In this document: positions 1 to 44,748 of the stretch, piece after piece | Layout: each line of letters begins with the position of its first letter | How positions within the stretch are numbered: the first letter of the stretch is position 1 | Source of the DNA: Escherichia coli | Lineage (GTDB): Bacteria; Pseudomonadota; Gammaproteobacteria; Enterobacterales; Enterobacteriaceae | Reading direction: 5' to 3' (one strand) | NCBI RefSeq assembly: GCF_003018235.1 | Contig: NZ_CP027437.1 | DNA: 64,000 nt | The notes under the pieces: generated by a model | What the model was told of the DNA's origin: nothing | The model's input: the letters and a program-made list of their open reading frames with translations, nothing else | Database searches by the model: none | Position numbers and translations under genes: made by a program

Positions 1-43
1 TCCAAATGAACTATATTAAATACCGTGGGATAAGACATAACAA

Positions 44-367
44 ATGAAGTGGGTAGTAATTGACACGGTAATTCAACCTACATGCGGCATATCTTTTTCA
101 GCCATATGGGGTGATATGAAAATGATCATCTGGTATCAATCTACTATATTTCTCCCTCCTGGAAGTATATTTACACCGGTTAAGCCTGGTATTATCCTTA
201 AGGATAAAGAATACCCTATTACTATTTATAACATCACACCATTCAACAAGAATTTATGGAGTTTACTCAAAAGCAGTCAAGAGTGTCCTCCAGGAGAAAG
301 CGAAATAACAAATAAATGTTTGCATAAGAGTTGTATTATAAAAATATGCCCATATGGGCTCAAATAA
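44..367 (+). CDS. hypothetical protein in AT-rich DNA beyond the icd 3' end
   Basis: ORF in strongly AT-rich sequence downstream of icd; no recognisable family; may be spurious. Confidence 0.2.
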
Positions 368-423
368 TGGGTTTTATATAAATATGCTCGATATGCTATT
401 AATAATATCCACATAAATAAAAC

Positions 424-446
424 AACGGGCGTGTTATACGCCCGTT
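424..446 (-). terminator. putative intrinsic terminator of icd
   Basis: GC hairpin aacgggcgtgttatacgcccgtt followed by a T-run on the minus strand just after the icd stop. Confidence 0.5.
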
Positions 447-469
447 TCAATATTTAACACATGTAGAGA

Positions 470-1720
470 TTACATGTTCTTGATGATCGCATCACCAAAC
501 TCGCTGCATTTCAGCAGTTTAGCGCCTTCCATCAGACGTTCGAAGTCATAGGTTACAGTCTTGGCGTTGATTGCGCCTTCCATACCTTTAACAATCAGGT
601 CTGCGGCTTCAGTCCAGCCCATATGGCGCAGCATCATCTCAGCGGAGAGAATAATAGAGCCTGGGTTTACTTTGTCCTGACCGGCATATTTCGGCGCAGT
701 ACCGTGGGTGGCTTCAAACAGGGCGCATTCGTCACCGATGTTTGCGCCTGGGGCGATACCGATACCGCCGACCTGTGCAGCCAGAGCGTCAGAAATGTAG
801 TCACCGTTCAGGTTCATACAGGCGATAACATCATATTCAGCCGGACGCAGCAGGATCTGTTGCAGGAATGCATCAGCAATCACATCTTTAATGACGATCT
901 CTTTGCCGGTATTCGGGTTTTTAACTTTCATCCACGGGCCGCCGTCGATCAGTTCACCGCCAAACTCTTCACGCGCCAGCTGGTAGCCCCAGTCTTTAAA
1001 CGCGCCTTCGGTGAACTTCATGATGTTGCCTTTGTGCACCAGGGTCACAGAGTCACGATCGTTAGCAATTGCGTATTCGATCGCTGCACGAACCAGACGT
1101 TTGGTGCCTTCTTCCGAACACGGCTTAATACCGATACCGCAATGTTCCGGGAAGCGAATTTTCTTCACGCCCATCTCTTCACGCAGGAATTTAATCACTT
1201 TCTCGGCGTCGGCAGAGTCAGCTTTCCATTCGATACCCGCATAAATGTCTTCCGAGTTTTCACGGAAGATAACCATATCGGTCAGTTCAGGGTGTTTAAC
1301 CGGGCTTGGAGTGCCCTGATAGTAACGTACCGGACGCAGGCAGATGTAGAGATCCAGTTCCTGACGCAGGGCAACGTTCAGAGAGCGAATACCGCCACCT
1401 ACTGGAGTGGTCAGCGGGCCTTTAATGGCAACGCGATATTCACGAATCAGATCAAGGGTTTCAGCAGGCAGCCAGACATCCTGACCATAAACCTGTGTGG
1501 ATTTTTCACCGGTGTAAATTTCCATCCAGGAGATTTTACGCTCGCCTTTATAGGCTTTCTCGACTGCAGCGTCGACCACTTTCAGCATGGCTGGGGTTAC
1601 ATCTACACCGATTCCATCACCTTCAATGTAAGGGATAATCGGATTTTCAGGAACGTTGAGTTTGCCGTTTTGCAGGGTGATCTTCTTGCCTTGTGCCGGA
1701 ACAACTACTTTACTTTCCAT
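470..1720 (-). CDS. icd: isocitrate dehydrogenase (NADP)
   Basis: 416 aa translation [43 protein letters not shown] matches E. coli Icd; stop at 470-472 verified. Confidence 0.97.
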
Positions 1721-1891
1721 TCACCTCTCCTTCGAGCGCTACTGGTTTGCTCGTCTGCCACCACGTTGCATATGCGTTTGCGTCCTGCGATACGGATGCT
1801 TTAGAGCAATTTTTTGTTAATGATTTGTAATTGGCTTGTCAATACTACCCTATTGTTTGCCGTCATGAAAGATGCGCGTTATTAGGCTATA

Positions 1892-2039
1892 ATGCGGCAA
1901 TTCATAATCTCTGAAAATACCATGCAAAAAACTTCTTTTAGACCAAAGACAGTATTTTCCCGACATTCAAATAAAGTATTAAATATCAATTATTTACACC
2001 AGATTTTAAGCAATAAAAAAACCACCAGAGATAACTAAC
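1892..2039 (+). pseudogene. displaced original 5' end of rluE fused to insert sequence
   Basis: ATG at 1892 encodes MRQFIISENTMQKTSFR, which I recall as the K-12 RluE N-terminus, then diverges and stops after 49 codons. Confidence 0.4.
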
Positions 2040-2180
2040 AGGGTGCTATTTGGTCAAAATTTGACATTACTCGATTCAGCGACTATCTCACTTTGAGCAC
2101 TATTGGGAAAATTATCAAAAGTCATGGTTGAAGCGACAAGCAACGAGTAAATTATGGCATCCCCCCTTTTTGAGGTTCAC

Positions 2181-2267
2181 ATGAAACGCTTTGCACTGAT
2201 AGCTGTGAAACTCGTTGCCTTTACTGGTTCTGCATCTGCTGCAACCGAAGAAATCAACTTCAAGTAA
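2181..2267 (+). CDS. 28-aa signal-peptide-like ORF
   Basis: MKRFALIAVKLVAFTGSASAATEEINFK preceded by a GAGG ribosome-binding site; within the rluE insert. Confidence 0.2.
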   Translation: MKRFALIAVKLVAFTGSASAATEEINFK

Positions 2268-2300
2268 CAGAAACACTATATAACAATGGAGTGTTGACAA

Positions 2301-2588
2301 ATGGATACTACCGAAGAACGCAATGGAACATATTTCTACAGAGGACACCCGAACCTGTCCAAAATAGAACTACTCAACGTCATATTCCTTGAAGAATTCT
2401 GTAAGGAATTGGGGATTGATTCGGTATCAGGTGCAGCAATCTTATCTGGTCAACCGTGGCTGGGTACAAGAGCGAAGCCGCAAGGGGCAACCCTGGGAAC
2501 AAGTGTTGTCTCAAAGTATGCGCGTATACTGATGAGAGATGCACGCATGCCTTTTGGTATTTGTGGGTGTAAGGATGCAGAAATCTAA
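2301..2588 (+). CDS. hypothetical protein
   Basis: 95 aa ORF in the rluE insert; no family recognised. Confidence 0.3.
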   Translation: MDTTEERNGTYFYRGHPNLSKIELLNVIFLEEFCKELGIDSVSGAAILSGQPWLGTRAKPQGATLGTSVVSKYARILMRDARMPFGICGCKDAEI

Positions 2589-2736
2589 TAAGCTTGCTGC
2601 AATTATCGCTCGTTGGGTCCCGTGGATTGGTTGGGCTTCACTGTCGATGAGTCTTTACAGGGTTTCGACTCGTACCCAGGAAAAATACAATCTGATTGCC
2701 AAACCTCAAGACCGTATTAAGTGGACTTCCTTCTAA
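2539..2736 (+). CDS. small putative membrane protein
   Basis: Hydrophobic stretch LAAIIARWVPWIGWASLSMSLY; likely start is the internal ATG at 2575. Confidence 0.25.
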   Translation: MHACLLVFVGVRMQKSNKLAAIIARWVPWIGWASLSMSLYRVSTRTQEKYNLIAKPQDRIKWTSF

Positions 2737-3071
2737 TGGCGACAACAATCACAGACGAAGTTTTAGCACTGTTCCGTGATGAGATTCCAGGTTATCAGGA
2801 TGACCACGGGAAGGAAATTCCGTTAGAACTGGACTCTGATTTGTTCGACTATCCACGAGATGATTTAGAGGACGCTATACGGAAATACAAAGAGAGGTTT
2901 GGGATTAACCTGGATAATCTGGACTGGTCTTTGTACCTTCCATGGGAGTCTGCACCATTGCTTCAACGATGGTTCAAGCTCAAGCGGGAAGAGGTAGAAA
3001 CAACACGTTTACCGTTAACTGTACGGATGTTTGCAGAATCAGCAGAAGCGGGAAAATGGCTGTATCAGTAG
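2721..3071 (+). CDS. hypothetical acidic protein
   Basis: 116 aa acidic ORF in the rluE insert; no confident family assignment. Confidence 0.4.
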   Translation: MDFLLMATTITDEVLALFRDEIPGYQDDHGKEIPLELDSDLFDYPRDDLEDAIRKYKERFGINLDNLDWSLYLPWESAPLLQRWFKLKREEVETTRLPLTVRMFAESAEAGKWLYQ

Positions 3072-3391
3072 AATAAAAAAGAAGGCTGCGATGCCCCTCT
3101 TATTACTGCTGATGATAGTAGTGGTAAAGCATCATCCTAAACTTGAACAGTGAAGTGCTGTCACCCATCAGTAATACAGAAACACTATTTTTCATACCAG
3201 TATTTATTCAATTCATCAATGTAAAATGTGTTCATTGGGCCATATTTATCACCATGCAGCCACACAACCGCTGCTCACTAACCCAGGTATTGATGAAACC
3301 GCGCTGAAGAGCCTGAACCCTGAACCTCTAACGAGTACCTTAAAAGTCCAATGCAATCCGACACTGTGCTACCCTCTGCGTATAGCTCTAT

Positions 3392-7892: not shown

Positions 7893-8564
7893 ATGCGCGT
7901 ACTGGTTGTTGAAGACAATGCGTTGTTACGTCACCACCTTAAAGTTCAGATTCAGGATGCTGGTCATCAGGTCGATGATGCAGAAGATGCCAAAGAAGCC
8001 GATTATTATCTCAATGAACATTTACCGGATATTGCGATTGTCGATCTGGGATTGCCAGACGAGGACGGTCTGTCACTGATTCGCCGCTGGCGTAGCAATG
8101 ATGTTTCACTGCCGATTCTGGTATTAACCGCCCGTGAAAGCTGGCAGGACAAAGTCGAAGTATTAAGTGCCGGTGCTGATGATTACGTGACTAAACCATT
8201 TCATATTGAAGAGGTGATGGCGCGAATGCAGGCATTAATGCGGCGTAATAGCGGTCTGGCTTCACAGGTCATTTCGCTACCCCCGTTTCAGGTTGATCTC
8301 TCCCGCCGTGAATTATCTATTAATGACGAAGTGATCAAACTGACCGCGTTCGAATACACCATCATGGAAACGTTGATACGCAATAATGGCAAAGTGGTCA
8401 GCAAAGATTCGTTAATGCTACAACTCTACCCGGATGCGGAGCTGCGGGAAAGTCATACCATAGATGTACTGATGGGACGTCTGCGCAAAAAAATACAGGC
8501 ACAATATCCGCAAGAAGTGATTACCACCGTTCGCGGCCAGGGCTATCTGTTCGAATTGCGCTGA
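7893..8564 (+). CDS. phoP: response regulator PhoP
   Basis: 223 aa OmpR-family regulator [30 protein letters not shown]. Confidence 0.97.
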
Positions 8565-10024
8565 TGAAAAAATTACTGCGTCTTTTTTTCCCGCTCTCGC
8601 TGCGGGTACGTTTTCTGTTAGCAACGGCAGCAGTAGTATTGGTGCTTTCGCTTGCCTACGGAATGGTTGCGCTGATCGGTTATAGCGTCAGTTTCGATAA
8701 AACCACGTTTCGGCTGTTACGTGGCGAGAGCAATCTGTTCTATACCCTTGCGAAGTGGGAAAACAATAAGTTGCATGTCGAGTTACCCGAAAATATCGAC
8801 AAGCAAAGCCCCACTATGACGCTAATTTATGATGAGAACGGGCAGCTTTTATGGGCGCAACGTGACGTGCCCTGGCTGATGAAGATGATCCAGCCTGACT
8901 GGCTGAAATCGAATGGTTTTCATGAAATTGAAGCGGATGTTAACGATACCAGCCTCTTGCTGAGTGGAGATCATTCGATACAGCAACAGTTGCAGGAAGT
9001 GCGGGAAGATGATGACGACGCGGAGATGACCCACTCGGTGGCGGTAAACGTCTACCCGGCAACATCGCGGATGCCAAAGTTGACCATTGTGGTGGTGGAT
9101 ACCATTCCGGTGGAGCTAAAAAGTTCCTATATGGTCTGGAGCTGGTTTATCTATGTGCTCTCAGCCAATCTGCTGTTAGTGATCCCGCTGCTGTGGGTCG
9201 CCGCCTGGTGGAGTTTACGCCCCATCGAAGCCCTGGCAAAAGAAGTCCGCGAACTGGAAGAACATAACCGCGAATTGCTCAATCCAGCCACAACGCGAGA
9301 ACTGACCAGTCTGGTACGAAACCTGAACCGATTGTTAAAAAGTGAACGCGAACGTTACGACAAATACCGTACGACGCTCACCGACCTGACCCATAGTCTG
9401 AAAACGCCACTGGCGGTGCTGCAAAGTACGCTGCGTTCTCTGCGTAGTGAAAAGATGAGCGTCAGTGATGCTGAACCGGTAATGCTGGAGCAAATCAGCC
9501 GCATTTCACAGCAAATTGGCTACTACCTGCATCGTGCCAGTATGCGCGGCGGGACATTGCTCAGCCGCGAGCTGCATCCGGTCGCCCCACTGCTGGACAA
9601 TCTCACCTCGGCGCTGAACAAAGTGTATCAACGCAAAGGGGTCAATATCTCTCTCGATATTTCGCCAGAGATCAGCTTTGTCGGTGAGCAGAACGATTTT
9701 GTCGAGGTGATGGGCAACGTGCTGGATAATGCCTGTAAATATTGCCTCGAGTTTGTCGAAATATCTGCAAGGCAAACCGACGAGCATCTCTATATTGTGG
9801 TCGAGGATGATGGCCCCGGTATTCCATTAAGCAAGCGAGAGGTCATTTTCGACCGTGGTCAACGGGTTGATACTTTACGCCCTGGGCAAGGTGTAGGGCT
9901 GGCGGTAGCCCGCGAAATCACCGAGCAATATGAGGGTAAAATCGTCGCCGGAGAGAGCATGCTGGGCGGTGCGCGGATGGAGGTGATTTTTGGTCGCCAG
10001 CATTCTGCGCCGAAAGATGAATAA
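8564..10024 (+). CDS. phoQ: sensor histidine kinase PhoQ
   Basis: 486 aa; start overlaps the phoP stop (TGATG); histidine kinase motifs. Confidence 0.97.
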
Positions 10025-10110
10025 ATATGTCCTTTTATCATTAAACACAACCAACCAATTGATTTAATTAAATAAATCTCACTACAGAAAGTGCCAAAAA
10101 TCGCAAATTG

Positions 10111-10131
10111 ACTACACCATTAACTACACCG
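10111..10131. repeat. attL core actacaccattaactacaccg
   Basis: Identical to 21485-21505; flanking ~40 bp show imperfect similarity. Confidence 0.7.
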
Positions 10132-10234
10132 TTCGGTGCACTGTATGAAACAACGTGGAACAAATAGACACAAGAAATATATGGGCGGGTAATTTATCTA
10201 TGTGAAAGCGTGCCGACTAATAGGGCGTTAATGT

Positions 10235-10256
10235 CGATATGGGGATCCCCATATCG
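10235..10256. repeat. perfect 22-bp palindrome cgatatggggatccccatatcg
   Basis: Read directly from the sequence. Confidence 0.6.
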
Positions 10257-10284
10257 GGAACCATACCGGAATTTTTGCCAGGTT

Positions 10285-10411
10285 AAATGTTAACCGCTGC
10301 CCTGTTAACATTTTTACCAAAAAGGTAGTTAACATTTTTTGCACGCAACCATATGAATCATAAAGACAAAATCAACAACAACGCTTCATCAGGCAGTTAA
10401 CATGTTAACTA
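10285..10411. repeat. array of four to five GTTAACAT repeats
   Basis: tgttaac at 10288, 10303, 10328 and doubled at 10396-10411; non-coding. Confidence 0.45.
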
Positions 10412-10925
10412 CTACAAAACGGTAATTTTTTCTCTGCGTGAGAGTGGGCGCGGTGTCCGAATTGTTCGTTGTTCGTGGCTAACCGCTCCCCCCCCTATAC
10501 CGGATTTTTTTCCGGTTAATCTTTAATCAGGCTGGTGGGGGTTACATACCCTTGATCACCGTAATGATGATTCAGGTATGCACCTTTCCCCCCGATGGGG
10601 TAAAAGCATCAACCGTAACGGTAATATCTGCCTTGATGGTCTGCGTGGTCATTATGACCATTCAGCCAATGACCTTAATCAGAATTTTTCGCTAAAAAAT
10701 GATGTTGGCCACGTCGTCCGGAAAGCACAAAATCCCGTCGATTTTTAATTAACGGTTAAACCGCCTTTTTGTCACGGTGTGTCACTGGTTGCCACTCACC
10801 GTCACGATGTCCGCTCGCCTGGCTGTAAATTAAACTACGAAAATTTCGTAGTTGTGAGGGACTACAAGTCCCGCGCAAATTTCCCCCGGTCCCCTCAAAT
10901 TGAGGTTGCCGGAAATATCAACCAG

Positions 10926-11219
10926 TTACCGCCGTAACCGCTCCAGCTTCTTCCAGTGGTACGTAATTTTCTCTTTCTCCCGGTACATCTCAACGCGGCG
11001 ATTGTAGGCCAGCATTTCCAGAACGCGGATCCGTATGTCGCGCATATCTACATCGTTAAGCTGGATACCATCACGGCGCATCACCTCAGCAACCACACGC
11101 GCATAATTTTCAGCGGTCACGCTGTCCGGCTGCGTTGCCTGTTCGTCAGCCTGCTGGCTGATTCCTGCAACGCGGTGGATTAATCGCAGTATTTCGGCTT
11201 CTGTCATTGTGCCCCCCAT
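10926..11219 (-). CDS. hypothetical protein next to cos
   Basis: 97 aa ORF MGGTMTEAEILRLIHRVAGISQQ; no family recognised. Confidence 0.45.
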   Translation of the reverse strand: MGGTMTEAEILRLIHRVAGISQQADEQATQPDSVTAENYARVVAEVMRRDGIQLNDVDMRDIRIRVLEMLAYNRRVEMYREKEKITYHWKKLERLRR

Positions 11220-11243
11220 CGTTCTAATCGTCTGGTGTCGTCG

Positions 11244-11313
11244 GGTCCTTCCTGGAATTATGGCCCGTTACGGGGCGGCGACCTCGCGGTTTTTCACTAT
11301 TTATGAGATTTTT
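11244..11313 (+). other. lambda-type cos site (cos-L), plus orientation
   Basis: cgggtccttcc (cosQ-like) then ttacggggcggcgacctcgcgg; 12-nt cosN gggcggcgacct at 11273-11284, as I recall the lambda cohesive end. Confidence 0.7.
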
Positions 11314-11319
11314 TAGGGG

Positions 11320-11472
11320 GTGGTTGTTGTTTAATTGTTTGTCATATCTATTTGATAACTAAGTAAAAATAGAGAGCAATACAACAACCTGATAGTGTTT
11401 TTTGATGCTACAAATAAAAAAAATGCTAATTGAATCAAATAGTTTTACAAAAATACGTGGTTGTTGTATTGC
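11320..11472 (+). repeat. three GGTTGTTGT repeats, middle one inverted, downstream of cos-L
   Basis: gtggttgttgt 11320-11330, caatacaacaacc 11377-11389, cgtggttgttgtattgc 11456-11472, separated by AT-rich spacers. Confidence 0.5.
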
Positions 11473-11521
11473 GTATTTGATGGCGTAACAGAAAGTGATT
11501 TTGAACTTTGCTGTTCTGTGA

Positions 11522-11731
11522 CTACTGATTGTTCCATGCTGGCGCGGCGAACGCTTCGGCATGACGCCCCCCAGCCAGAAAACCAGCCATTTTATTTCGT
11601 GCTTTGCTCACATCTTCCGGTGAGTAGCCGTAAATCTGTAAACCTTCATTGAATCGATGTTCTGTTTCTTCACTTGAGTACTCGTCGCTCTCCGATGAAA
11701 TCAGCCTGGCAACTTCAGTCTGCGTAGCCAC
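11522..11731 (-). CDS. hypothetical small acidic protein downstream of cos-R
   Basis: 69 aa, GTG start with GAGGTGAGG ribosome-binding site; sits where Nu1 sits relative to lambda cos but is not Nu1-like. Confidence 0.4.
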   Translation of the reverse strand: MATQTEVARLISSESDEYSSEETEHRFNEGLQIYGYSPEDVSKARNKMAGFLAGGRHAEAFAAPAWNNQ

Positions 11732-11761
11732 TCCTCACCTCACAATCACGACAAAACCGGT

Positions 11762-11861
11762 CATGTCCGGTTTACATGTCTATTTTTTGCGCATGTCCGG
11801 TTCATGGAAAGCCTATTTTTATATTTTTCATATAGTTAACTTGCAGAGAAACCGGACATGG
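11762..11861 (-). repeat. three AACCGGACATG repeats, one inverted, downstream of cos-R
   Basis: catgtccggtt at 11762-11772 and 11792-11802, aaccggacatg at 11851-11861 (plus-strand reading). Confidence 0.5.
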
Positions 11862-11932
11862 ATCCCGGAAAATTTTCATAAATAGCGAAAAACCGCGAGG
11901 TCGCCGCCCCGTAACGGGTCCATATGCCGGAA
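11860..11932 (-). other. lambda-type cos site (cos-R), minus orientation
   Basis: Minus strand reads ttacgggtcctttccgg ... cgttacggggcggcgacctcgcggtttttcgctatttatgaaaattttccgg; cosN at 11898-11909. Confidence 0.75.
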
Positions 11933-11941
11933 AGGACCCGT

Positions 11942-11964
11942 AAAAAAGCCGGATTTCTCCGGCC
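11942..11964 (-). terminator. intrinsic terminator after the capsid operon
   Basis: Minus strand gccggagaaatccggc hairpin followed by tttttt. Confidence 0.5.
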
Positions 11965-11969
11965 TTGTC

Positions 11970-12383
11970 TCAGATGGTTTTCAGTATGCGATCGATGTCG
12001 CCGTCATCGCCCGGGTTTCTGCCATCGTATGCCATGCCAGCTGATACGGCTTGCGGGCTGTGCATGTCCATAAAGTTTTCAAAGGCTGCGGTAAGCTCTG
12101 GTGCAACCTTCAGGCGTTCCTGCTCTATGGTCATGCTAAGGATGCTTTTAGCCGTACCAACATCGATACAAGGCACGTTTGCCATTGCACGTAACAGCGG
12201 CTGATAGTCGCCAGATTCATCAAGCGCCATAATCGCATCAGAGCGCGGCTTGTCCTTCTCTTCCAGGCTGTTAAGTTGATATACGGCCTCGTAGGTTGAT
12301 AAACCTCTGTCAGCCATTGCCCGCGCTTCGGCCTTAAATTTACTCGCCAGCGGTAGCGTCATGATGCTTTCATTCGTTGCCAT
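11970..12383 (-). CDS. hypothetical protein, last gene of capsid operon
   Basis: 137 aa acidic ORF directly after the decoration gene; no family recognised. Confidence 0.55.
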   Translation of the reverse strand: MATNESIMTLPLASKFKAEARAMADRGLSTYEAVYQLNSLEEKDKPRSDAIMALDESGDYQPLLRAMANVPCIDVGTAKSILSMTIEQERLKVAPELTAAFENFMDMHSPQAVSAGMAYDGRNPGDDGDIDRILKTI

Positions 12384-12395
12384 CGTTACCCCTGC

Positions 12396-12731
12396 TTATC
12401 GCGCCAGCGGCTGAACGGATACGCCAGAACCCGCAAAGGCGGCGCATTTTTTCGCGTCGGTGTCGACGCTCTCAGGCCAGTTTACAGCGGCGATATTGAA
12501 TATCCCCGCCTTGTAGCACTGTGCTGATTTCTGCTTTGACGTGTCCACGGGGTACGACGTCAGGTAAACAGCCTTGCCCGATTCCTGACCATCCCACGGT
12601 TTAAACTCGCCATTGTCCGCCAGCATCAGCGGGGTAAATTCCTGAATAACGCCAGCATCAGCGGCAAAATGTACCAGCGTCGTGGCGACCTGCTGACTGC
12701 CTGCAAATAACTCAATGTATGGAGTGTCCAT
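12396..12731 (-). CDS. head decoration protein, lambda gpD-like
   Basis: 111 aa; TPLMLADNGEFKPWDG ... KAGIF ... WPE ... AKKCAAFAGSGVSV resembles gpD as I recall it. Confidence 0.7.
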   Translation of the reverse strand: MDTPYIELFAGSQQVATTLVHFAADAGVIQEFTPLMLADNGEFKPWDGQESGKAVYLTSYPVDTSKQKSAQCYKAGIFNIAAVNWPESVDTDAKKCAAFAGSGVSVQPLAR

Positions 12732-12742
12732 AGAATTCCCCG

Positions 12743-20228: not shown

Positions 20229-21479
20229 TTATTTTCTTCTGGCTGCTGGTAGTGCGGTTACGTTTTCTTGTGTTCCCGCCAGTATCCCTAACCGCTCCGT
20301 CCACATATCCAGCGCATTGCGTTTAGCATCCAGATAACGGGAATGATTATAAACTCGCTGCATTCCTGGCATCTGGTGGCCTGTAAGCTGCTCCACGACG
20401 TGAGGATCCACGCCTAAATCGTTCAGCATCGTTGTAAAGGTGCGCCGGATGTCATGTAGTGACCAGTGAGGGTGATTTAGCCTCCTGTGCGCTAATCTGC
20501 CGTACTGCGACACGCTTGTTTCCTGTTTCACTTCCCCCAGCAATAAGCCCGTGTTCCTGTTCTGCTCCACCAGCTGCGTGACGAACGGCAGTATTGCTTC
20601 CGGTATGGGCCGGAATATTGCCACCTTCGTTTTGCTGTGTTCTTTCGGCACGGTCCAGAGCATTTCGGTAAAATCCCACTCTCTGATCTCCGATAACCTC
20701 AGTTCTACCGTCCGGCATCCGAACACAATCAGGAGGCGGATTAACGCGATGTAGTAAGGGGAAAATATTTTTTTGTCCAGTGCCTGCAATAATTCGCCCA
20801 GTTCTTTGGTGCTTAAGACACGCTCGCTTATATCCGGTTTTTTCCCAACGTCCGCCACACTCATATCATCAAGAACGTTGCTGATTGCATAGCGCCGCCT
20901 CCTGCAGAACTTAAGCGCCTGTTTGCACGTCTGTAGCAAGAATCCGGCAGTAACAGGCGTTCGCTTTGCCACCTGGTCAAAACAGGCCAGCCAGTGCCGT
21001 AGCTCGCATTTATCCAGCGGCATAGCACCAATGTGCTGTATTACGTGATTATTAAGGCGCTTTTTCAGGGCGGCATAATCCACGCGATTTTCCTTTGCGT
21101 ACGACTCAAGCCAGTAGGTGAGCGCATCGCCAACCGTTACCGGCTTTAACGCTTCCTGTACGGTGTAATTCATTTCATGACGTGGATTTTTCCCCTCTGC
21201 CAGCCATGCGCGACACTGGGCGGCTTTTTCCCTGGCTGATTTCAGGCTCAGATCAGGATAATTTCCCAGCTTAATGCGTTCCGGTGGTGCCCCCCTTCCC
21301 GTTCCGGCCCTGTAAGTGAAATACCAGGTTAAAAGGCCACTGGTTGAATGCCTGACGCTCAGGTTTCCACCGTCATTAAGAAAGGCTGTTTTTTGGGCGG
21401 GTGTGCCGTTGATTTTCCTCAGCTGTGTATCGCTCAGTTTGTTAAGTGCTCTGCTCATAATTTTGATTCCGGTCATCAC
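20229..21479 (-). CDS. int: tyrosine site-specific integrase, P4-type
   Basis: 416 aa; C-terminal LHDIRRTFTTML ... GHQMPGMQRVYNHSRY catalytic region; start 6 bp from attR. Confidence 0.9.
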   Translation of the reverse strand: MMTGIKIMSRALNKLSDTQLRKINGTPAQKTAFLNDGGNLSVRHSTSGLLTWYFTYRAGTGRGAPPERIKLGNYPDLSLKSAREKAAQCRAWLAEGKNPRHEMNYTVQEALKPVTVGDALTYWLESYAKENRVDYAALKKRLNNHVIQHIGAMPLDKCELRHWLACFDQVAKRTPVTAGFLLQTCKQALKFCRRRRYAISNVLDDMSVADVGKKPDISERVLSTKELGELLQALDKKIFSPYYIALIRLLIVFGCRTVELRLSEIREWDFTEMLWTVPKEHSKTKVAIFRPIPEAILPFVTQLVEQNRNTGLLLGEVKQETSVSQYGRLAHRRLNHPHWSLHDIRRTFTTMLNDLGVDPHVVEQLTGHQMPGMQRVYNHSRYLDAKRNALDMWTERLGILAGTQENVTALPAARRK

Positions 21480-21484
21480 AATTA

Positions 21485-21505
21485 ACTACACCATTAACTA
21501 CACCG
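21485..21505. repeat. attR core actacaccattaactacaccg
   Basis: Identical to 10111-10131. Confidence 0.7.
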
Positions 21506-21706
21506 ATCGTTGCACAAAGGGCTACAACGTGAAACAAGCTGGAACAAGGAAAATCACAAACCTGTTTATAATCAAAAACATAATGAACAATCTGAAACAT
21601 TATGAAACGGCAAAAAACACTAATTGATAAAATATGTCCATACTTCACGCATTACGTTAAGCATCCGTTATAATCGGTTGCAGATACCAGCCTGTGGATG
21701 CTTAAC

Positions 21707-22828
21707 ATGGAATACCAACTCACTCTTAACTGGCCCGATTTTCTTGAACGTCACTGGCAGAAACGTCCGGTGGTGTTAAAACGCGGCTTTAATAATTTTA
21801 TTGACCCGATCTCTCCAGACGAGTTGGCGGGTCTGGCGATGGAAAGCGAAGTCGACAGTCGACTGGTCAGTCATCAGGATGGCAAATGGCAGGTCAGCCA
21901 CGGTCCATTCGAAAGCTACGATCATCTCGGTGAAACTAACTGGTCATTGTTAGTGCAAGCAGTGAACCACTGGCATGAACCGACCGCCGCGCTAATGCGA
22001 CCGTTCCGTGAACTACCGGACTGGCGTATTGATGATCTGATGATCTCTTTTTCTGTACCGGGCGGCGGCGTCGGCCCGCATCTCGATCAGTACGACGTGT
22101 TTATCATTCAGGGTACCGGTCGTCGTCGCTGGCGAGTGGGCGAAAAGCTACAAATGAAACAGCACTGCCCGCACCCGGATCTGTTACAGGTCGATCCGTT
22201 CGAAGCCATCATCGATGAAGAGCTGGAGCCTGGCGATATTCTTTATATTCCGCCAGGATTCCCGCATGAAGGCTACGCGCTGGAAAATGCGATGAACTAT
22301 TCCGTGGGTTTTCGCGCGCCAAATACGCGGGAACTGATTAGCGGATTTGCCGATTATGTGCTGCAACGTGAACTGGGCGGCAACTACTACAGCGATCCGG
22401 ATGTTCCACCTCGCGCTCATCCTGCGGACGTTCTGCCGCAAGAGATGGATAAACTGCGTGAGATGATGCTCGAATTGATCAACCAGCCGGAACACTTTAA
22501 GCAATGGTTTGGGGAGTTTATATCCCAGTCACGCCATGAACTGGATATCGCGCCGCCAGAGCCGCCTTATCAGCCGGATGAAATCTACGATGCGCTGAAA
22601 CAAGGTGAAGTGCTGGTGCGTCTGGGTGGTCTGCGCGTATTGCGCATTGGCGACGACGTGTATGCCAATGGTGAGAAGATCGATTCCCCACACCGTCCGG
22701 CACTGGATGCGCTCGCCAGCAACATTGCGCTGACCGCGGAGAATTTTGGTGATGCGCTGGAAGATCCGTCATTTCTCGCGATGCTTGCGGCACTAGTCAA
22801 TAGCGGGTATTGGTTCTTCGAAGGGTAA
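21707..22828 (+). CDS. roxA: ribosomal protein-arginine oxygenase (JmjC/cupin)
   Basis: MEYQLTLNWPDFLERHWQKRPVVLKRGF from ATG 21707. Confidence 0.9.
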   Translation: MEYQLTLNWPDFLERHWQKRPVVLKRGFNNFIDPISPDELAGLAMESEVDSRLVSHQDGKWQVSHGPFESYDHLGETNWSLLVQAVNHWHEPTAALMRPFRELPDWRIDDLMISFSVPGGGVGPHLDQYDVFIIQGTGRRRWRVGEKLQMKQHCPHPDLLQVDPFEAIIDEELEPGDILYIPPGFPHEGYALENAMNYSVGFRAPNTRELISGFADYVLQRELGGNYYSDPDVPPRAHPADVLPQEMDKLREMMLELINQPEHFKQWFGEFISQSRHELDIAPPEPPYQPDEIYDALKQGEVLVRLGGLRVLRIGDDVYANGEKIDSPHRPALDALASNIALTAENFGDALEDPSFLAMLAALVNSGYWFFEG

Positions 22829-40531: not shown

Positions 40532-40612
40532 ATCCTGGATAAAAAAATCCCCGCGACACGGCATGTCGCGGGGAAAAAATCAGCAGTAGCAGGCATTAAT
40601 GAGGGTTAATGC

Positions 40613-40870
40613 TTATTTATAAATTACTGCTGTTCCATGGAGGGTATTCGGACCGGTTACAGAAGTAATACGGAAAGATTTTGCGCCCATCTCATCCGCT
40701 TTTTGCGCCAGCTGCTCTTCCAGCGATCCCAGATTTGTCCCCGCGTTAGCACTGATTGTACCGACTTTTTGTTGGCCTTCTGGCGTTGACTGAACTTCGA
40801 CAGCCGCAAAGCTGGCAAATGACATGGAGCTTAAAATCGCCGCAGCGATGAGGGTTTTTACGTTTTTCAT
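40613..40870 (-). CDS. bhsA: multiple stress resistance protein
   Basis: 85 aa secreted YcfR/BhsA-family protein. Confidence 0.9.
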   Translation of the reverse strand: MKNVKTLIAAAILSSMSFASFAAVEVQSTPEGQQKVGTISANAGTNLGSLEEQLAQKADEMGAKSFRITSVTGPNTLHGTAVIYK

Positions 40871-41110
40871 AATAGTGGCCTTATGCAGATGAATGACGTC
40901 GCAAGCAATTACTTAACGATCGATAACTAAATGATAAATGTGATCTGGATCACATACAAGATATTTTTTATAACAATCATTAATTAATTTAAAAATCTTT
41001 AAATTTCAGTTAAATAGAAAGAAATTATTTTTATGGTTTGTGGACTGGTGAACGGAGGTGATTATTTTTATAATAACCTTTCATTCACAGTCACCAGGTA
41101 CAACGGCATC

Positions 41111-41743
41111 ATGGCAACTGACTCAACACAATGTGTAAAAAAAAGCCGTGGCCGCCCAAAAGTGTTCGACAGGGATGCCGCGCTTGATAAGGCCATGAAA
41201 TTGTTCTGGCAGCACGGTTATGAAGCGACTTCTCTTGCGGACCTCGTCGAAGCGACCGGAGCCAAAGCGCCCACGCTATACGCGGAATTTACCAACAAAG
41301 AGGGGTTATTCCGCGCCGTACTCGACCGCTATATCGATCGTTTTGCCGCTAAGCATGAAGCACAGCTGTTTTGTGAAGAGAAAAGCGTGGAGACTGCGCT
41401 GGCTGACTATTTTGCTGCCGTCGCCAACTGCTTTACCAGCAAAGACACCCCGGCTGGCTGCTTTATGATCAACAACTGCACCACCCTCTCCCCGGATTCC
41501 GGAGATATCGGCAATACGCTGAAATCACGCCATGCGATGCAAGAGCGCACTTTGCAGCAGTTTTTATGTCAACGACAAGCGCGCGGGGAAATCCCGACCC
41601 ACTGTGACGTGACGCATCTGGCAGAATTCCTTAATTGTATTATTCAGGGGATGTCGATCAGCGCACGCGAAGGTGCATCGCTGGAAAAACTGATGCAGAT
41701 TGCCCGAACGACTTTGCGTTTATGGCCCGAACTGGTGAAATAA
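41111..41743 (+). CDS. comR: TetR-family repressor
   Basis: MATDSTQCVKKSRGRPKVFDRDAALDKAMKLFWQHGYEATSL from ATG 41111. Confidence 0.85.
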   Translation: MATDSTQCVKKSRGRPKVFDRDAALDKAMKLFWQHGYEATSLADLVEATGAKAPTLYAEFTNKEGLFRAVLDRYIDRFAAKHEAQLFCEEKSVETALADYFAAVANCFTSKDTPAGCFMINNCTTLSPDSGDIGNTLKSRHAMQERTLQQFLCQRQARGEIPTHCDVTHLAEFLNCIIQGMSISAREGASLEKLMQIARTTLRLWPELVK

Positions 41744-42570: not shown

Positions 42571-43875
42571 TTAATGCAACTTCAAACGTGGACGGATAAC
42601 GCGGTTAATACTCCCCACCAGCATCATTAATCCGGTTTTAAAGTAACCATGCAGCGCAATCTGGTGCATTCGGTATAGCGAGATGTATACAAAGCGCGCA
42701 ATTCGTCCTTCAATCATCATTGAGCCGCGCGTCAGGTTACCCATCAGGCTACCGACGGTGGAGAAGTTCGACAGCGATACCAGAGAACCGTGATCTTTAT
42801 ACTGATAATTTTTCAGCGGCTTACCGTTCATCTGCGCCAGAATGTTGTTCATTGCGCAGGTTGCCATCTGGTGTGCGGCCTGCGCACGCGGCGGAACAAA
42901 GCCCCCTTCCGGACGCGGGCATGACGCGCAGTCGCCAATAGCGTATATGTCTGGATCGCGAGTGGTTTGCAGCGTCGGTTCCACCACCAGCTGGTTGATA
43001 CGGTTGGTTTCAAGACCACCGATATCTTTCAGGAAGTCTGGTGCTTTGATCCCGGCTGCCCACACCATCAGATCAGCCTCAATATATTCACCATCTTTAG
43101 TATGCAGGCCGCCTTCATCAGCACTGGTGACCATGGTTTGCGTCAGCACGCGAACGCCAAGTTTCGTTAACTCATTATGGGCCGCAGCAGAGATACGTGG
43201 CGGTAATGCAGGCAAAATACGTTCGCCCGCTTCTACCAGCGTTACGTTCAGGGCTTCGTTGGTCAGACCTTTATAACCGTAGCTGTGCAGTTGCTTGACC
43301 GCGTTGTGCAATTCAGCGGAGAGTTCTACACCCGTCGCGCCGCCGCCGACTATCGCAATGTTCACTTTGCCATTCGCGCCCAGGTTGGCGGAGTATTTCA
43401 GGAACAGATTCAGCATCTCCTGGTGGAAGCGACGCGCCTGGTGCGGGTTATCGAGGAAAATGCAGTTCTCTTTGACACCTGGCGTATTGAAATCGTTGGA
43501 GGTGCTACCCAGCGCCATTACCAGGGTGTCATAGGCGATTTTACGTTCCGGAACCAGCAATTCACCTTTTTCGTCGCGCAGTTCTGCAATAGTGATTGTT
43601 TTCGCTTCACGATCAATATCAATGACGGAACCCAGCTGGAACTGGAAACCATGATTACGCGCATGGGCCAGATAGCTCAACGCATCAACGCCTTCATCAA
43701 GCGAGCCAGTCGCCACTTCGTGCAGCAGCGGTTTCCACAGGTGGCTGTGGTTACGATCGACCAGCGTGATTTTGGCTTTTTTCTTGCGTCCCAGCTTATG
43801 CCCCAGCTGTGTTGCCATTTCCAGCCCACCAGCACCGCCGCCGACAATCACAATTTTTTTCAATGGCGTAGTCAA
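42571..43875 (-). CDS. ndh: type II NADH dehydrogenase
   Basis: [20 protein letters not shown] from a TTG start at 43875 (434 aa). Confidence 0.9.
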
Positions 43876-44205
43876 CGTGACCCCCTTAAATTTATTAACC
43901 AATTGTTAATTAATGGTTATTAACATAGCTCTTAATTAACAACAGGTTACAGCAATGAAAATGTTCTTCGCTATTGAGAATAACATGAATGGTGCATTGG
44001 TCATACCAAAATTGATGTTAATCAAGTTTTGTTGCTGAAAAGATAGGCGACTTTACCGGGCGAGATCAAAAAACAGAGTTTGTTGTTTATTATTTGAGCT
44101 AATTTATGAGAGTGGTATAGCGTGAGGGGTGTATGGAGGACGTTTGGTAGGCCTGATAAAATGCGCATCAGGTACCGGCAAGGTTACCTGATGCGACGAG
44201 GGCAT

Positions 44206-44748
44206 TTACCCGAGGGTTTTGAACGCTTTAATGCGCTGCAAATGCGGGGAGATATTCTTGAATTTGTGCGTCTGCTCTTCGTCCCAGACAATCTCGTAAT
44301 AATGATGCAGCTCTTCAGATGTCCGCTGGCTGTTAAGCGCTTCATCATTACGCGACAAAATCACCAGGCAACGATCGCGATTCTTCTCACGGAAGTTGGT
44401 CACACACTTAGTGGCAATATCGGCATACTCTTCCGGGCGATCAATCTTGCCTTCCATGTTCTCATAAGGGAACAAATTAGGGTTGAAGATCACCTGGCGG
44501 ATATCGCAAAGAAAACCAATCCGTTCCGCCCAGTATCCGCCCAGACCAACGCCGCAAATCAGCGGACGCTCGTCGACGTTCAGTTGCAACATTTTGTCCA
44601 CTTCTTTGAGCAGATGCTGCATATCATGTTTCGGATGCCGCGTACTGTAGCTTATCAAGCGTACATCCGGGTCAATAAACTGCAATTGTAAGACTTTCTC
44701 GTGGTTACCCGGACTGTTAGAGTCAAAACCGTGTAAATAGATAATCAT
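44206..44748 (-). CDS. ycfP: UPF0227 esterase-like protein
   Basis: [19 protein letters not shown] from ATG 44748. Confidence 0.85.

Follow-up and report, generated by a model that had tools for sequence, protein, structure and literature searches.

The iraM-icd junction of an Escherichia coli chromosome: an anti-adaptor gene, a predicted terminator and an unoccupied phage attachment site

IraM, PmrD and the known neighbors of icd

The regulation and the target of the small E. coli protein IraM have been described before. Expression of iraM is induced by Mg2+ starvation (PMC4428439) and activated by PhoP (PMC11825808); among the references of PMC4428439, the title of Battesti et al. 2012 points to control by H-NS as well. 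Based on this literature, low Mg2+ or acid would induce iraM via PhoP/PhoQ, and, by analogy, the IraM protein of the strain described here would bind the adaptor RssB, such that RpoS would no longer be delivered to ClpXP and would be stabilized. The crystal structure of the IraM-RssB complex revealed a PmrD-like fold (PMC10844676), and the resemblance to PmrD, the connector between PhoPQ and PmrAB, is close, i.e., the two share an unusual fold with an r.m.s.d. of about 1 Å (PMC10844676). Both are small proteins linked to PhoP, and each binds a response regulator at its receiver domain, but the target of IraM is RssB and that of PmrD is PmrA, and the outcome is blocked proteolytic delivery in the first case and a protected phosphoryl group in the second. 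At the level of sequence, the similarity between them is below what a local Pfam scan detects (IraM gave no match even at E <= 10), and the assignment of IraM to PmrD (PF11183) was taken from precomputed tables and the published structure.

Other described members of the family are genes on prophages and islands. IraL of uropathogenic E. coli CFT073 is 58.9% identical to IraM in amino acid sequence and also targets RssB, but it is expressed from a different, constitutive-type promoter (PMC4045071). IraL and other prophage- or island-borne genes of the family, such as RssC in Salmonella, are of the same size as IraM, but they reside inside lambdoid prophages or islands, whereas the copy that is the subject of this report is chromosomal and beside icd, with no phage genes around it. 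The nearest precedent for the latter arrangement is K-12, in which iraM (ycgW, b1160) encodes 107 aa, has as its neighbors ymgK and the icd 3' end (icdC), and is separated from icdC by a 102-bp spacer with a terminator.

The DNA analyzed here, referred to as the window, is a 64-kb stretch of an E. coli chromosome that begins just upstream of such a gene. Its first 43 bp (1–43, plus strand) are the end of the iraM leader, cut by the window edge and collinear with the DNA 5' of annotated iraM in K-12 and in two relative genomes (L001 and L003). The iraM promoter and PhoP-responsive region are beyond that edge, with only these 43 bp before the start codon inside it. There follows a complete coding sequence at 44–367 on the plus strand, encoding 107 aa at 34.9% GC, which the sequence-only reading had taken for an orphan ORF. 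That description does not hold: the ORF matched the NCBIfam profile NF007393, "anti-adapter protein IraM", with 169.9 bits (cutoff 121), and the match covered residues 1–107 against profile positions 1–110 of 114. Its product is 92% identical to K-12 IraM (8 substitutions in 106 aligned residues) and matched the solved IraM chain 8TWD_A over residues 1–78 (E = 6.9e-46), and the annotation beneath every top genome match was iraM, adjoining icd. The ORF is thus full-length iraM (ycgW), the orthologue of the K-12 gene in its genomic position as well as its sequence, and its product would be expected to have the PmrD-like beta-barrel fold. An antisense ORF of 57 aa at 277–450 was discarded, as it overlaps both iraM and the terminator and had no supporting evidence.

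On the far side of the junction, an intact icd (470–1720, minus strand) encodes the 416-aa NADP-dependent isocitrate dehydrogenase. Between the two convergent genes is a 102-bp spacer (368–469) equal in length to that between icdC and iraM in K-12, and within it a terminator scan and RNA folding identified a hairpin at 424–446 on the minus strand. The hairpin has a 9-bp stem with six GC pairs and a 5-nt loop; on the icd-sense strand its tail is GUUUUAUUUA, and its fold there (-23.3 kcal/mol, z = -4.6) was not equaled in stability by any of 200 shuffled sequences. It is a predicted intrinsic (Rho-independent) terminator of icd and plausibly a bidirectional one that would end iraM transcripts also, because the same hairpin folds on the iraM-sense strand (-24.8 kcal/mol, z = -4.1). 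Rfam returned sub-threshold matches only (tpke11, at 22.3 bits against a threshold of 43, over the terminator hairpin), which were dismissed, and a promoter scan found promoter-like sites to be no more numerous than in shuffled sequence.

The attachment site at the icd 3' end

The icd 3' end had been named in the sequence-only reading as a known hot spot of prophage integration, and the databases amply bore this out. Across 5,430 records, the last 165 nt of icd were found 7,348 times, an insertion separates iraM from the icd body in approximately 880 of the genomes that have iraM, and 28 phage records match positions 417–633 at 93–96% identity. The annotation of phage 21 includes int, arm sites, a terminator and an icd-like pseudogene. 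The segment duplicated by e14, phage 21 and many lambdoid phages corresponds to 417–634 in the window (minus strand) and comprises the final 165 nt of icd together with the stop codon and terminator, as delimited by the phage matches and the e14/icdC boundaries of K-12. The homology ends at 633/634, which matches the e14/icdC junctions of K-12, and it is at this boundary that we infer the crossover to occur.

Given such heavy use of the site, together with the strong AT-richness of 1–470 and the existence of phage-borne relatives of its gene, it was natural to consider that this stretch might be the right-hand edge of a present-day prophage or island at the icd 3' end, extending leftward off the window. 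This was the suspicion raised by the sequence-only reading, and the comparisons make it highly improbable. A sensitive blastn search of 470–700 against the 64-kb window found only the query itself, so there is no second copy of the icd 3' end there, and no tyrosine integrase or excisionase was found in 1–470; the sole integrase nearby (20229–21479) is part of another island, located between phoQ and roxA. When a phage integrates at icd, its own 165 nt are left on icd and icdC and iraM are moved to the far end, as in K-12, where the 15-kb e14 parts iraM and icdC from the icd body. In the window, in contrast, iraM and icd are contiguous and icd is joined to a host-type flank. The window aligns with the icdC-to-iraM (attR) side of K-12 and diverges from e14 just past the stop-codon and terminator homology: over 417–469 it is identical to L001 (100%), 98% identical to the icdC side of K-12, 90.6% to phage 21 and 68% to e14, and no high-identity match to phage sequence was found to the left of 417. 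With a single contiguous copy and alignment to the icdC-to-iraM side of K-12, therefore, the e14/phage-21 attachment site in the window is, as read from these comparisons, unoccupied.

The best complete-genome match to the window in this region is at most 98.5% identical, and the left context was therefore read from relatives. In L001, L003, K-12 and three metagenome contigs, the genes to the left of iraM are ymgK, ymgL, ycgX, bluR and bluF, and ycgZ-ymgA-ariR-ymgC are likewise to the left of iraM in the closest genomes. The metagenome contigs, which contain a 34-mer specific to the window, are 95.9–97.6% identical to it and have the same left context. The search proposed earlier for an integrase and an icd 3' duplication beyond the edge was thus run on these relatives, over 12–15 kb, and neither turned up; instead, the five genes from ymgK to bluF were found beyond iraM, and no integrase or phage gene is to the left in any of these relatives. 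Blastn, tblastn and a shuffled-control alignment also found no icd-like relic in the 12–15 kb left of iraM in L001, L003 and K-12, and an ancient icdC relic there was rejected as a candidate, the only similarity being a repeat of the terminator, with none to icd coding sequence.

The undivided arrangement is also widespread. A query from iraM to the icd body (window 200–1000) was contiguous in 3,029 of 5,426 genomes, and one comprising 1–470 was contiguous in 3,899, although the latter ends at the icd stop codon and hence is matched by the icdC side of K-12 too. We consider it very probable that 1–470 is the normal, prophage-free junction of icd with its convergent neighbor iraM. The placement of iraM "on the e14 prophage" in PMC4045071 fits neither K-12, in which iraM is outside e14, nor the window.

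An empty site is not necessarily one that was never visited. The last 165 nt of icd in the window (470–634, minus strand) are 97.0% identical to the copy of phage 21, compared to 91.5–94.5% for chromosomal alleles, and a 4-nt cluster, TCGCTGCA, is common only to this segment and phage 21. Identity of at least 99% to the segment was found in only 23 of the 5,430 records. While the attB of e14 and phage 21 is empty in the window, this phage-21-like allele suggests a past phage-mediated replacement, and the end of icd is probably the recombination scar of an earlier lysogeny.

The repeat-flanked ymgK-iraM unit and its origin

The strong AT-richness noted past the icd 3' end is real. GC content is 0.337 over 1–469 (0.349 in the iraM ORF and 0.314 in the spacer), against 0.504 in icd and 0.505 in the window as a whole; the proportion of 469-bp windows that are equally AT-rich is only 0.025%, and the stretch is the GC minimum of the 64 kb. 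In L001 a low-GC block continues for approximately 9 kb left of icd (0.31–0.47, compared to 0.50–0.55 on the right), and the AT-richness belongs to iraM together with this block on its left. It is probably a mark of the history of iraM. Alternatively, a small regulatory gene and its intergenic DNA might simply be composed in this way, with no bearing on foreign origin. High AT content is common in E. coli among spacers and stress genes under H-NS control, and the ycgZ-ymgA-ariR, bluF and bluR block is low in GC as well yet conserved in other Enterobacterales. However, it is the iraM coding sequence itself that forms the extreme of the window, and iraM, besides having paralogues on prophages, is variably present and confined to Escherichia and Shigella, facts that make the ordinary-composition explanation very unlikely.

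That variability proved to have a simple form. The iraM gene is present in 3,937 of 5,426 complete E. coli genomes (73%) and absent from 1,489 (27%), and a clean junction of ymgL, a single repeat and icd is contiguous in 1,037 genomes, including that of E2348/69. Where iraM is present, two imperfect direct repeats of 50–80 bp, A and B, bracket an 861-bp ymgK-iraM unit. Copy B is in the window at 387–464 (plus strand, core 417–464), where it was delimited by alignment with copy A of the relatives; copy A, between ymgL and ymgK, is seen in relatives only, approximately 395–445 bp left of window base 1, and includes among its carriers the three metagenome contigs that have the iraM allele of the window. 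Over 51 bp, the cores are 88% identical (E = 2e-11), a local alignment of the repeats scored z = 17 relative to shuffled sequence, and the repeat is confined to the icd locus, with a median of two places per genome. The repeats are the icd terminator module, ending at the icd stop codon; they contain no icd coding sequence and therefore do not constitute a classical attL/attR pair of the known icd phages. The ymgK-iraM segment, then, is a repeat-flanked segment whose presence or absence distinguishes strains.

The relatives of iraM add a second line of evidence on its history. Named family members are all from Escherichia, at 50–72% identity in precomputed tables, and the confinement of the family to Escherichia and Shigella agrees with PMC4045071. 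Lambdoid prophages carry relatives at 56–69% amino acid identity between their Q antiterminator gene and esterase or lysis genes, often adjoining stx2AB, and all the other family members we examined are cargo genes of lambdoid prophages. The similarity of iraM to phage DNA is restricted to the coding sequence (query 41–367), and there is therefore no phage flank left to prove descent. Within ycgX-ymgL-ymgK-iraM, the only phage matches are this coding sequence and ycgX, which is approximately 72% identical to the DUF1398 gene of lambda. The order and strand of ycgX-ymgL-ymgK-iraM agree with the geometry of lambdoid prophages and phage 21. That these four genes descend as a collinear block from a lambdoid late region is speculative, as the intervening DNA has no phage matches, and we do not claim it.

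Two histories could account for the alternative alleles. In the first, the ancestral arrangement was ycgX-ymgL-terminator-icd, as in E2348/69 and SC477, and it gained a lambdoid segment with an IraM-type gene. An incoming segment with its own icd terminator module would have recombined at that module in a Campbell-type event and then decayed, leaving ymgK-iraM between two diverged copies of the repeat. Several observations are as this history would have them: the empty-site allele is common, the two direct repeats are in register and differ by 12%, a divergence to be expected of an incoming copy already unlike the resident one, and phage copies of the terminator module are 90–96% identical to that of the host, icd-integrating phages being known carriers of it. 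The low GC content of iraM and the prophage location of the other family members are in keeping with it too. The single-repeat allele, moreover, has five to six private differences in approximately 30 bp and therefore is not the product of a recent deletion. Less easily accommodated are the absence of any phage sequence beyond coding-sequence homology and the extent of the repeat, which reaches left of the boundary of phage-21 homology (387 compared to 417) and does so without icd coding sequence. The bluF-bluR/ycgZ-ymgA-ariR module of Citrobacter and Pseudocitrobacter is located elsewhere and not beside icd. On balance, we give insertion about an even chance of being correct.

In the second history, the two-repeat ymgK-iraM arrangement is ancestral to E. 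coli, and strains without iraM lost the unit by homologous recombination between the repeats. Direct repeats with a 50-bp core on either side of an 861-bp unit are a classic setting for deletion, iraM is in the majority of genomes, and the SC477 single copy is mosaic, combining an A-type left flank with a hairpin loop and right junction of the B type, just the product expected. An ancestral empty site predicts the same mosaic, however, and the private differences already mentioned argue against a recent event; deletion also leaves the existence of the repeats and of the phage-borne relatives unexplained. It is nonetheless a serious contender, with a probability we would place a little short of even.

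The fuller proposal, that chromosomal iraM is domesticated lambdoid-prophage cargo that entered by recombination at the icd terminator module, with the two terminator copies as its sole footprint, is one we put forward tentatively, as a possible account rather than a favored one. In this sense the sequence-only description of the AT-rich DNA as foreign-looking was partly right: the behavior of the unit as a presence/absence cassette, its repeats and its relatives in lambdoid prophages agree with it, but there is no prophage edge, and what runs off the window is a 0.86-kb gene cassette, probably descended from a phage, rather than a prophage.

Strain differences in RpoS control and a possible link to Stx2 phages

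The function of iraM, its variability among strains and the island-borne IraL were already published, and only small evolutionary details are new here. The junction comprises the known gene iraM, a predicted terminator and an unoccupied phage site, and no new mobile element. The published location of iraM on e14 is wrong, since iraM is not part of e14 and strains free of e14, this one among them, have it. The loss or gain of a single 861-bp unit, which roughly one in four E. coli genomes lacks, provides a simple structural basis for differences among strains in RpoS control. If the reading of iraM as domesticated cargo is true, the IraM-like genes antisense beside stx2AB would be working RssB anti-adaptors, and Stx2 phages could raise the RpoS levels of their hosts. 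The presence of an uncharacterized IraM-like gene beside the toxin genes in some Stx2 phages suggests that there may be a link between toxin phages and the general stress response.

iraM beside an empty attachment site

Encoded on the minus strand as a 416-aa ORF (470..1720, by ORF call and genome matches), icd has as its 3' flank window positions 1-469. The sequence-only reading had called this flank AT-rich, and so it proved: its GC content is 33.7%, versus 50.4% for icd and 50.5% for the entire window, and it is the AT-richest part of the 64 kb, with 0.025% of all 469-bp windows equally AT-rich. Two more stretches with GC below 0.40 lie at 40561-41312 and 43841-44322. Within the flank is a complete 107-aa ORF (44..367, plus strand), convergent with icd, which had been regarded as an orphan, a view that its matches overturn, as they identify it as the known gene iraM. 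The ORF scored 169.9 bits against the NCBIfam profile NF007393, "anti-adapter protein IraM" (cutoff 121), its product was 92% identical to K-12 IraM and matched the crystallised IraM chain 8TWD_A with E = 6.9e-46, and in all top genome matches the annotation under it was iraM adjoining icd.

The functional steps known for iraM come from the literature on K-12-type IraM; of the upstream region of the window allele, only 43 bp are inside the window. IraM is induced by Mg2+ starvation (PMC4428439), via PhoP (PMC11825808), and control of iraM by H-NS is stated in the title of Battesti et al. 2012 (cited in PMC4428439). The protein folds like PmrD, and by binding RssB it spares RpoS from ClpXP (PMC10844676). 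The stop codons of iraM and icd are 102 bp apart, and a terminator scan located between them a 9-bp GC-rich hairpin (424-446) followed, in the icd sense, by GUUUUAUUUA. Its predicted folding energies are -23.3 kcal/mol (z = -4.6) in the icd sense and -24.8 kcal/mol (z = -4.1) in the iraM sense, identifying it as the predicted icd terminator, which plausibly works in both directions.

It had also been proposed that the flank might be the edge of an integrated element, to be checked by a leftward look for an integrase and an icd 3' duplication. The context left of the window was taken from relatives rather than from the source genome, and all relatives examined agree. In L001 and L003, the closest complete E. 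coli genomes, ymgK, ymgL, ycgX, bluR, bluF, ycgZ-ymgA-ariR-ymgC and pdeG lie to the left of iraM, and neither an integrase nor an icd fragment was found there; the same gene order was present in three metagenome contigs having a window-specific 34-mer of iraM. In K-12, e14 (1,196,209-1,211,412) separates the body of icd from the pseudogene icdC, beyond which comes iraM. Base-level alignment showed that the window runs on as the icdC-to-iraM side of K-12, having nothing in common with the left end of e14 past the terminator homology, and no second copy of the icd 3' end was found within the 64-kb window. Together, the alignment, the single icd 3' copy and the phage-free left context in the relatives indicate that the icd attachment site is empty here, and refute the prophage-edge model. 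What survives of the "foreign-looking" description holds at the scale of a 0.86-kb ymgK-iraM cassette.

Positions 1-470 were contiguous in 3,899 genomes, which is no count of empty sites, since the match region ends with the icd stop codon and is found in full in K-12 too. A query spanning the crossover (200-1000) was contiguous in 3,029 of 5,426 genomes, versus 3,912 with full-length iraM, implying an insertion at this point in about 880 iraM-carrying genomes. None of the same 5,426 complete E. coli genomes exceeded 98.0-98.5% identity to window 1-1000. The core genes of the window share about 98% identity with those of its best relatives, its icd-iraM region is about 2% diverged from every complete E. 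coli genome, and the source lineage is unrepresented in the set.

The phage-21-like end of icd and other variable DNA

The status of the icd 3' end as an integration hot spot was confirmed, its 165-nt segment having 7,348 occurrences across 5,430 records. Window 417-633 has a counterpart of 93-96% identity in 28 phage records, including phage 21 and many lambdoid phages, and in phage 21 this copy is annotated as a terminator and an "ICDH-like" pseudogene, adjoining the arm sites and int. The homology boundary (633/634) is at the same position as the e14/icdC junctions of K-12. The last 165 nt of icd (470-634) are 97.0% identical to the phage 21 copy, while the chromosomal alleles (L001, L003, SC477 and K-12 icdC) reach only 91.5-94.5%. 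The adjoining flank (417-469) shows the opposite trend: identity is 100% with L001 and 90.6% with phage 21. Upstream of the boundary, icd has the usual 97-98% identity to E. coli genomes. A 4-nt cluster, TCGCTGCA, was common only to the window and phage 21 among the sequences compared, and the icd allele is rare (matched at 99% or more in only 23 of 5,430 records). On the simplest reading, 470-634 is probably the scar of a past phage-21-like lysogeny, in which homologous recombination in the duplicated stretch would have removed the prophage and joined a phage-type icd end onto the host flank.

Other variable DNA was observed in the window. On the promoter side of icd, the spacer to rluE (1721-3391) is 1,671 bp, versus 172 bp in L001 and K-12. 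It contains an STM2901-family gene in two pieces, with profile positions 1-80 matched by the ORF at 2301-2588 and positions 91-140 by the ORF at 2539-2736, so that the gene is probably frameshifted; an intact DUF1493 gene (2736-3071) is also present. Found at full length in only 374 of 5,426 genomes, this insert is truly strain-variable. Between phoQ (8564-10024) and roxA (21698-22828) is an 11.6-kb island (10033-21629), absent from L001 and in parts 85-93% identical to an island of L003. All on the minus strand, it encodes a tyrosine integrase (20229-21479), an Ash-family protein (18099-19613), an AAA_25/RepA-like helicase (15916-17325), a lambda-E-type major capsid protein (12743-13798) and a head decoration protein (12396-12731), and looks like a capsid-encoding phage satellite.

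Terminator repeats around ymgK and iraM

The DNA to the left of iraM was searched for remnants of icd, which brought up a further terminator module, a direct repeat of the first, lying between ymgL and ymgK. The repeat core is 88% identical across 51 bp (E = 2e-11), and the repeat extends to about 80 bp when gaps are allowed (z = 17 versus shuffles). It is devoid of icd coding sequence (z about 0 versus shuffles) and is confined to the iraM-icd locus. The right-hand copy (copy B) is at 387-464, and copy A, placed from relatives, would sit approximately 395-445 bp left of window base 1; together they enclose an 861-bp unit with ymgK and iraM.

iraM was found in 3,937 of 5,426 genomes. Strain SC477 lacks both ymgK and iraM and has the order ycgX-ymgL-single repeat-icd; the ymgL-single repeat-icd junction is uninterrupted in 1,037 genomes, E2348/69 among them. 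The single repeat is a mosaic: its left flank is of the A type, its hairpin loop is of the B type, and on the right it passes into icd. It also carries 5-6 private differences within about 30 bp, which argue against its origin by recent deletion from a modern allele with iraM. The bluF-bluR module of Citrobacter and Pseudocitrobacter is at another place, not beside icd. A third route of iraM loss among strains was seen in E. coli NCCP 13717 (L017 3126-3951), in which an IS1 insertion truncated iraM and removed all between pdeG and iraM.

IraM relatives in lambdoid prophages

Wherever the context of another IraM-family member was examined, the gene belonged to a lambdoid prophage, in which it occupies the interval from the Q antiterminator to the esterase/lysis genes and runs opposite to the late operon. 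Several of these genes directly adjoin stx2AB. In Stx2 prophages (L004 6001-6324, L005 6001-6321 and L012-L014), the family gene has 66-69% aa identity to the window IraM; in many phages it is antisense between stx2B and a NanS-p-type esterase gene, in some records it was left unannotated, and no paper on its function was found. Variants of 56-64% occupy the same Q-to-lysis slot in E. albertii and E. coli prophages without stx (L006-L011), one of them adjoining an LpxR-family gene. One of these prophages (L009) also has a DUF1398 gene, the family of ycgX, the chromosomal neighbor of iraM. ycgX is approximately 72% identical to the DUF1398 gene of lambda itself. ycgX and iraM agree in order and strand with their counterparts in a lambdoid prophage, and their layout fits a phage-21-type insertion geometry. 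That the whole ycgX-iraM block is a decayed prophage stays speculative and is not claimed, because no phage homology was found in the DNA between the two genes.

iraM, the terminator and the attachment site are all known, the site being empty here, but the literature searched yielded no account of the terminator repeats that flank the unit, of the clean empty junction or of the position of family members beside stx2. The placing of iraM "on the e14 prophage" in PMC4045071 is contradicted by the e14-free window and by the annotation of K-12 (NC_000913), in which e14 ends at 1,211,412 and iraM (1,211,680-1,212,003) is beyond icdC (region 1,211,413-1,212,003). The same study (Hryckowian et al. 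2014, PMC4045071) reported that strains have iraM, iraL, both or neither, that the IraL of CFT073, 58.9% identical to IraM, is on a genomic island, and that the IraM/IraL family is limited to Escherichia and Shigella, Salmonella having RssC; the variable presence of iraM and the mobility of its relatives were thus already known.
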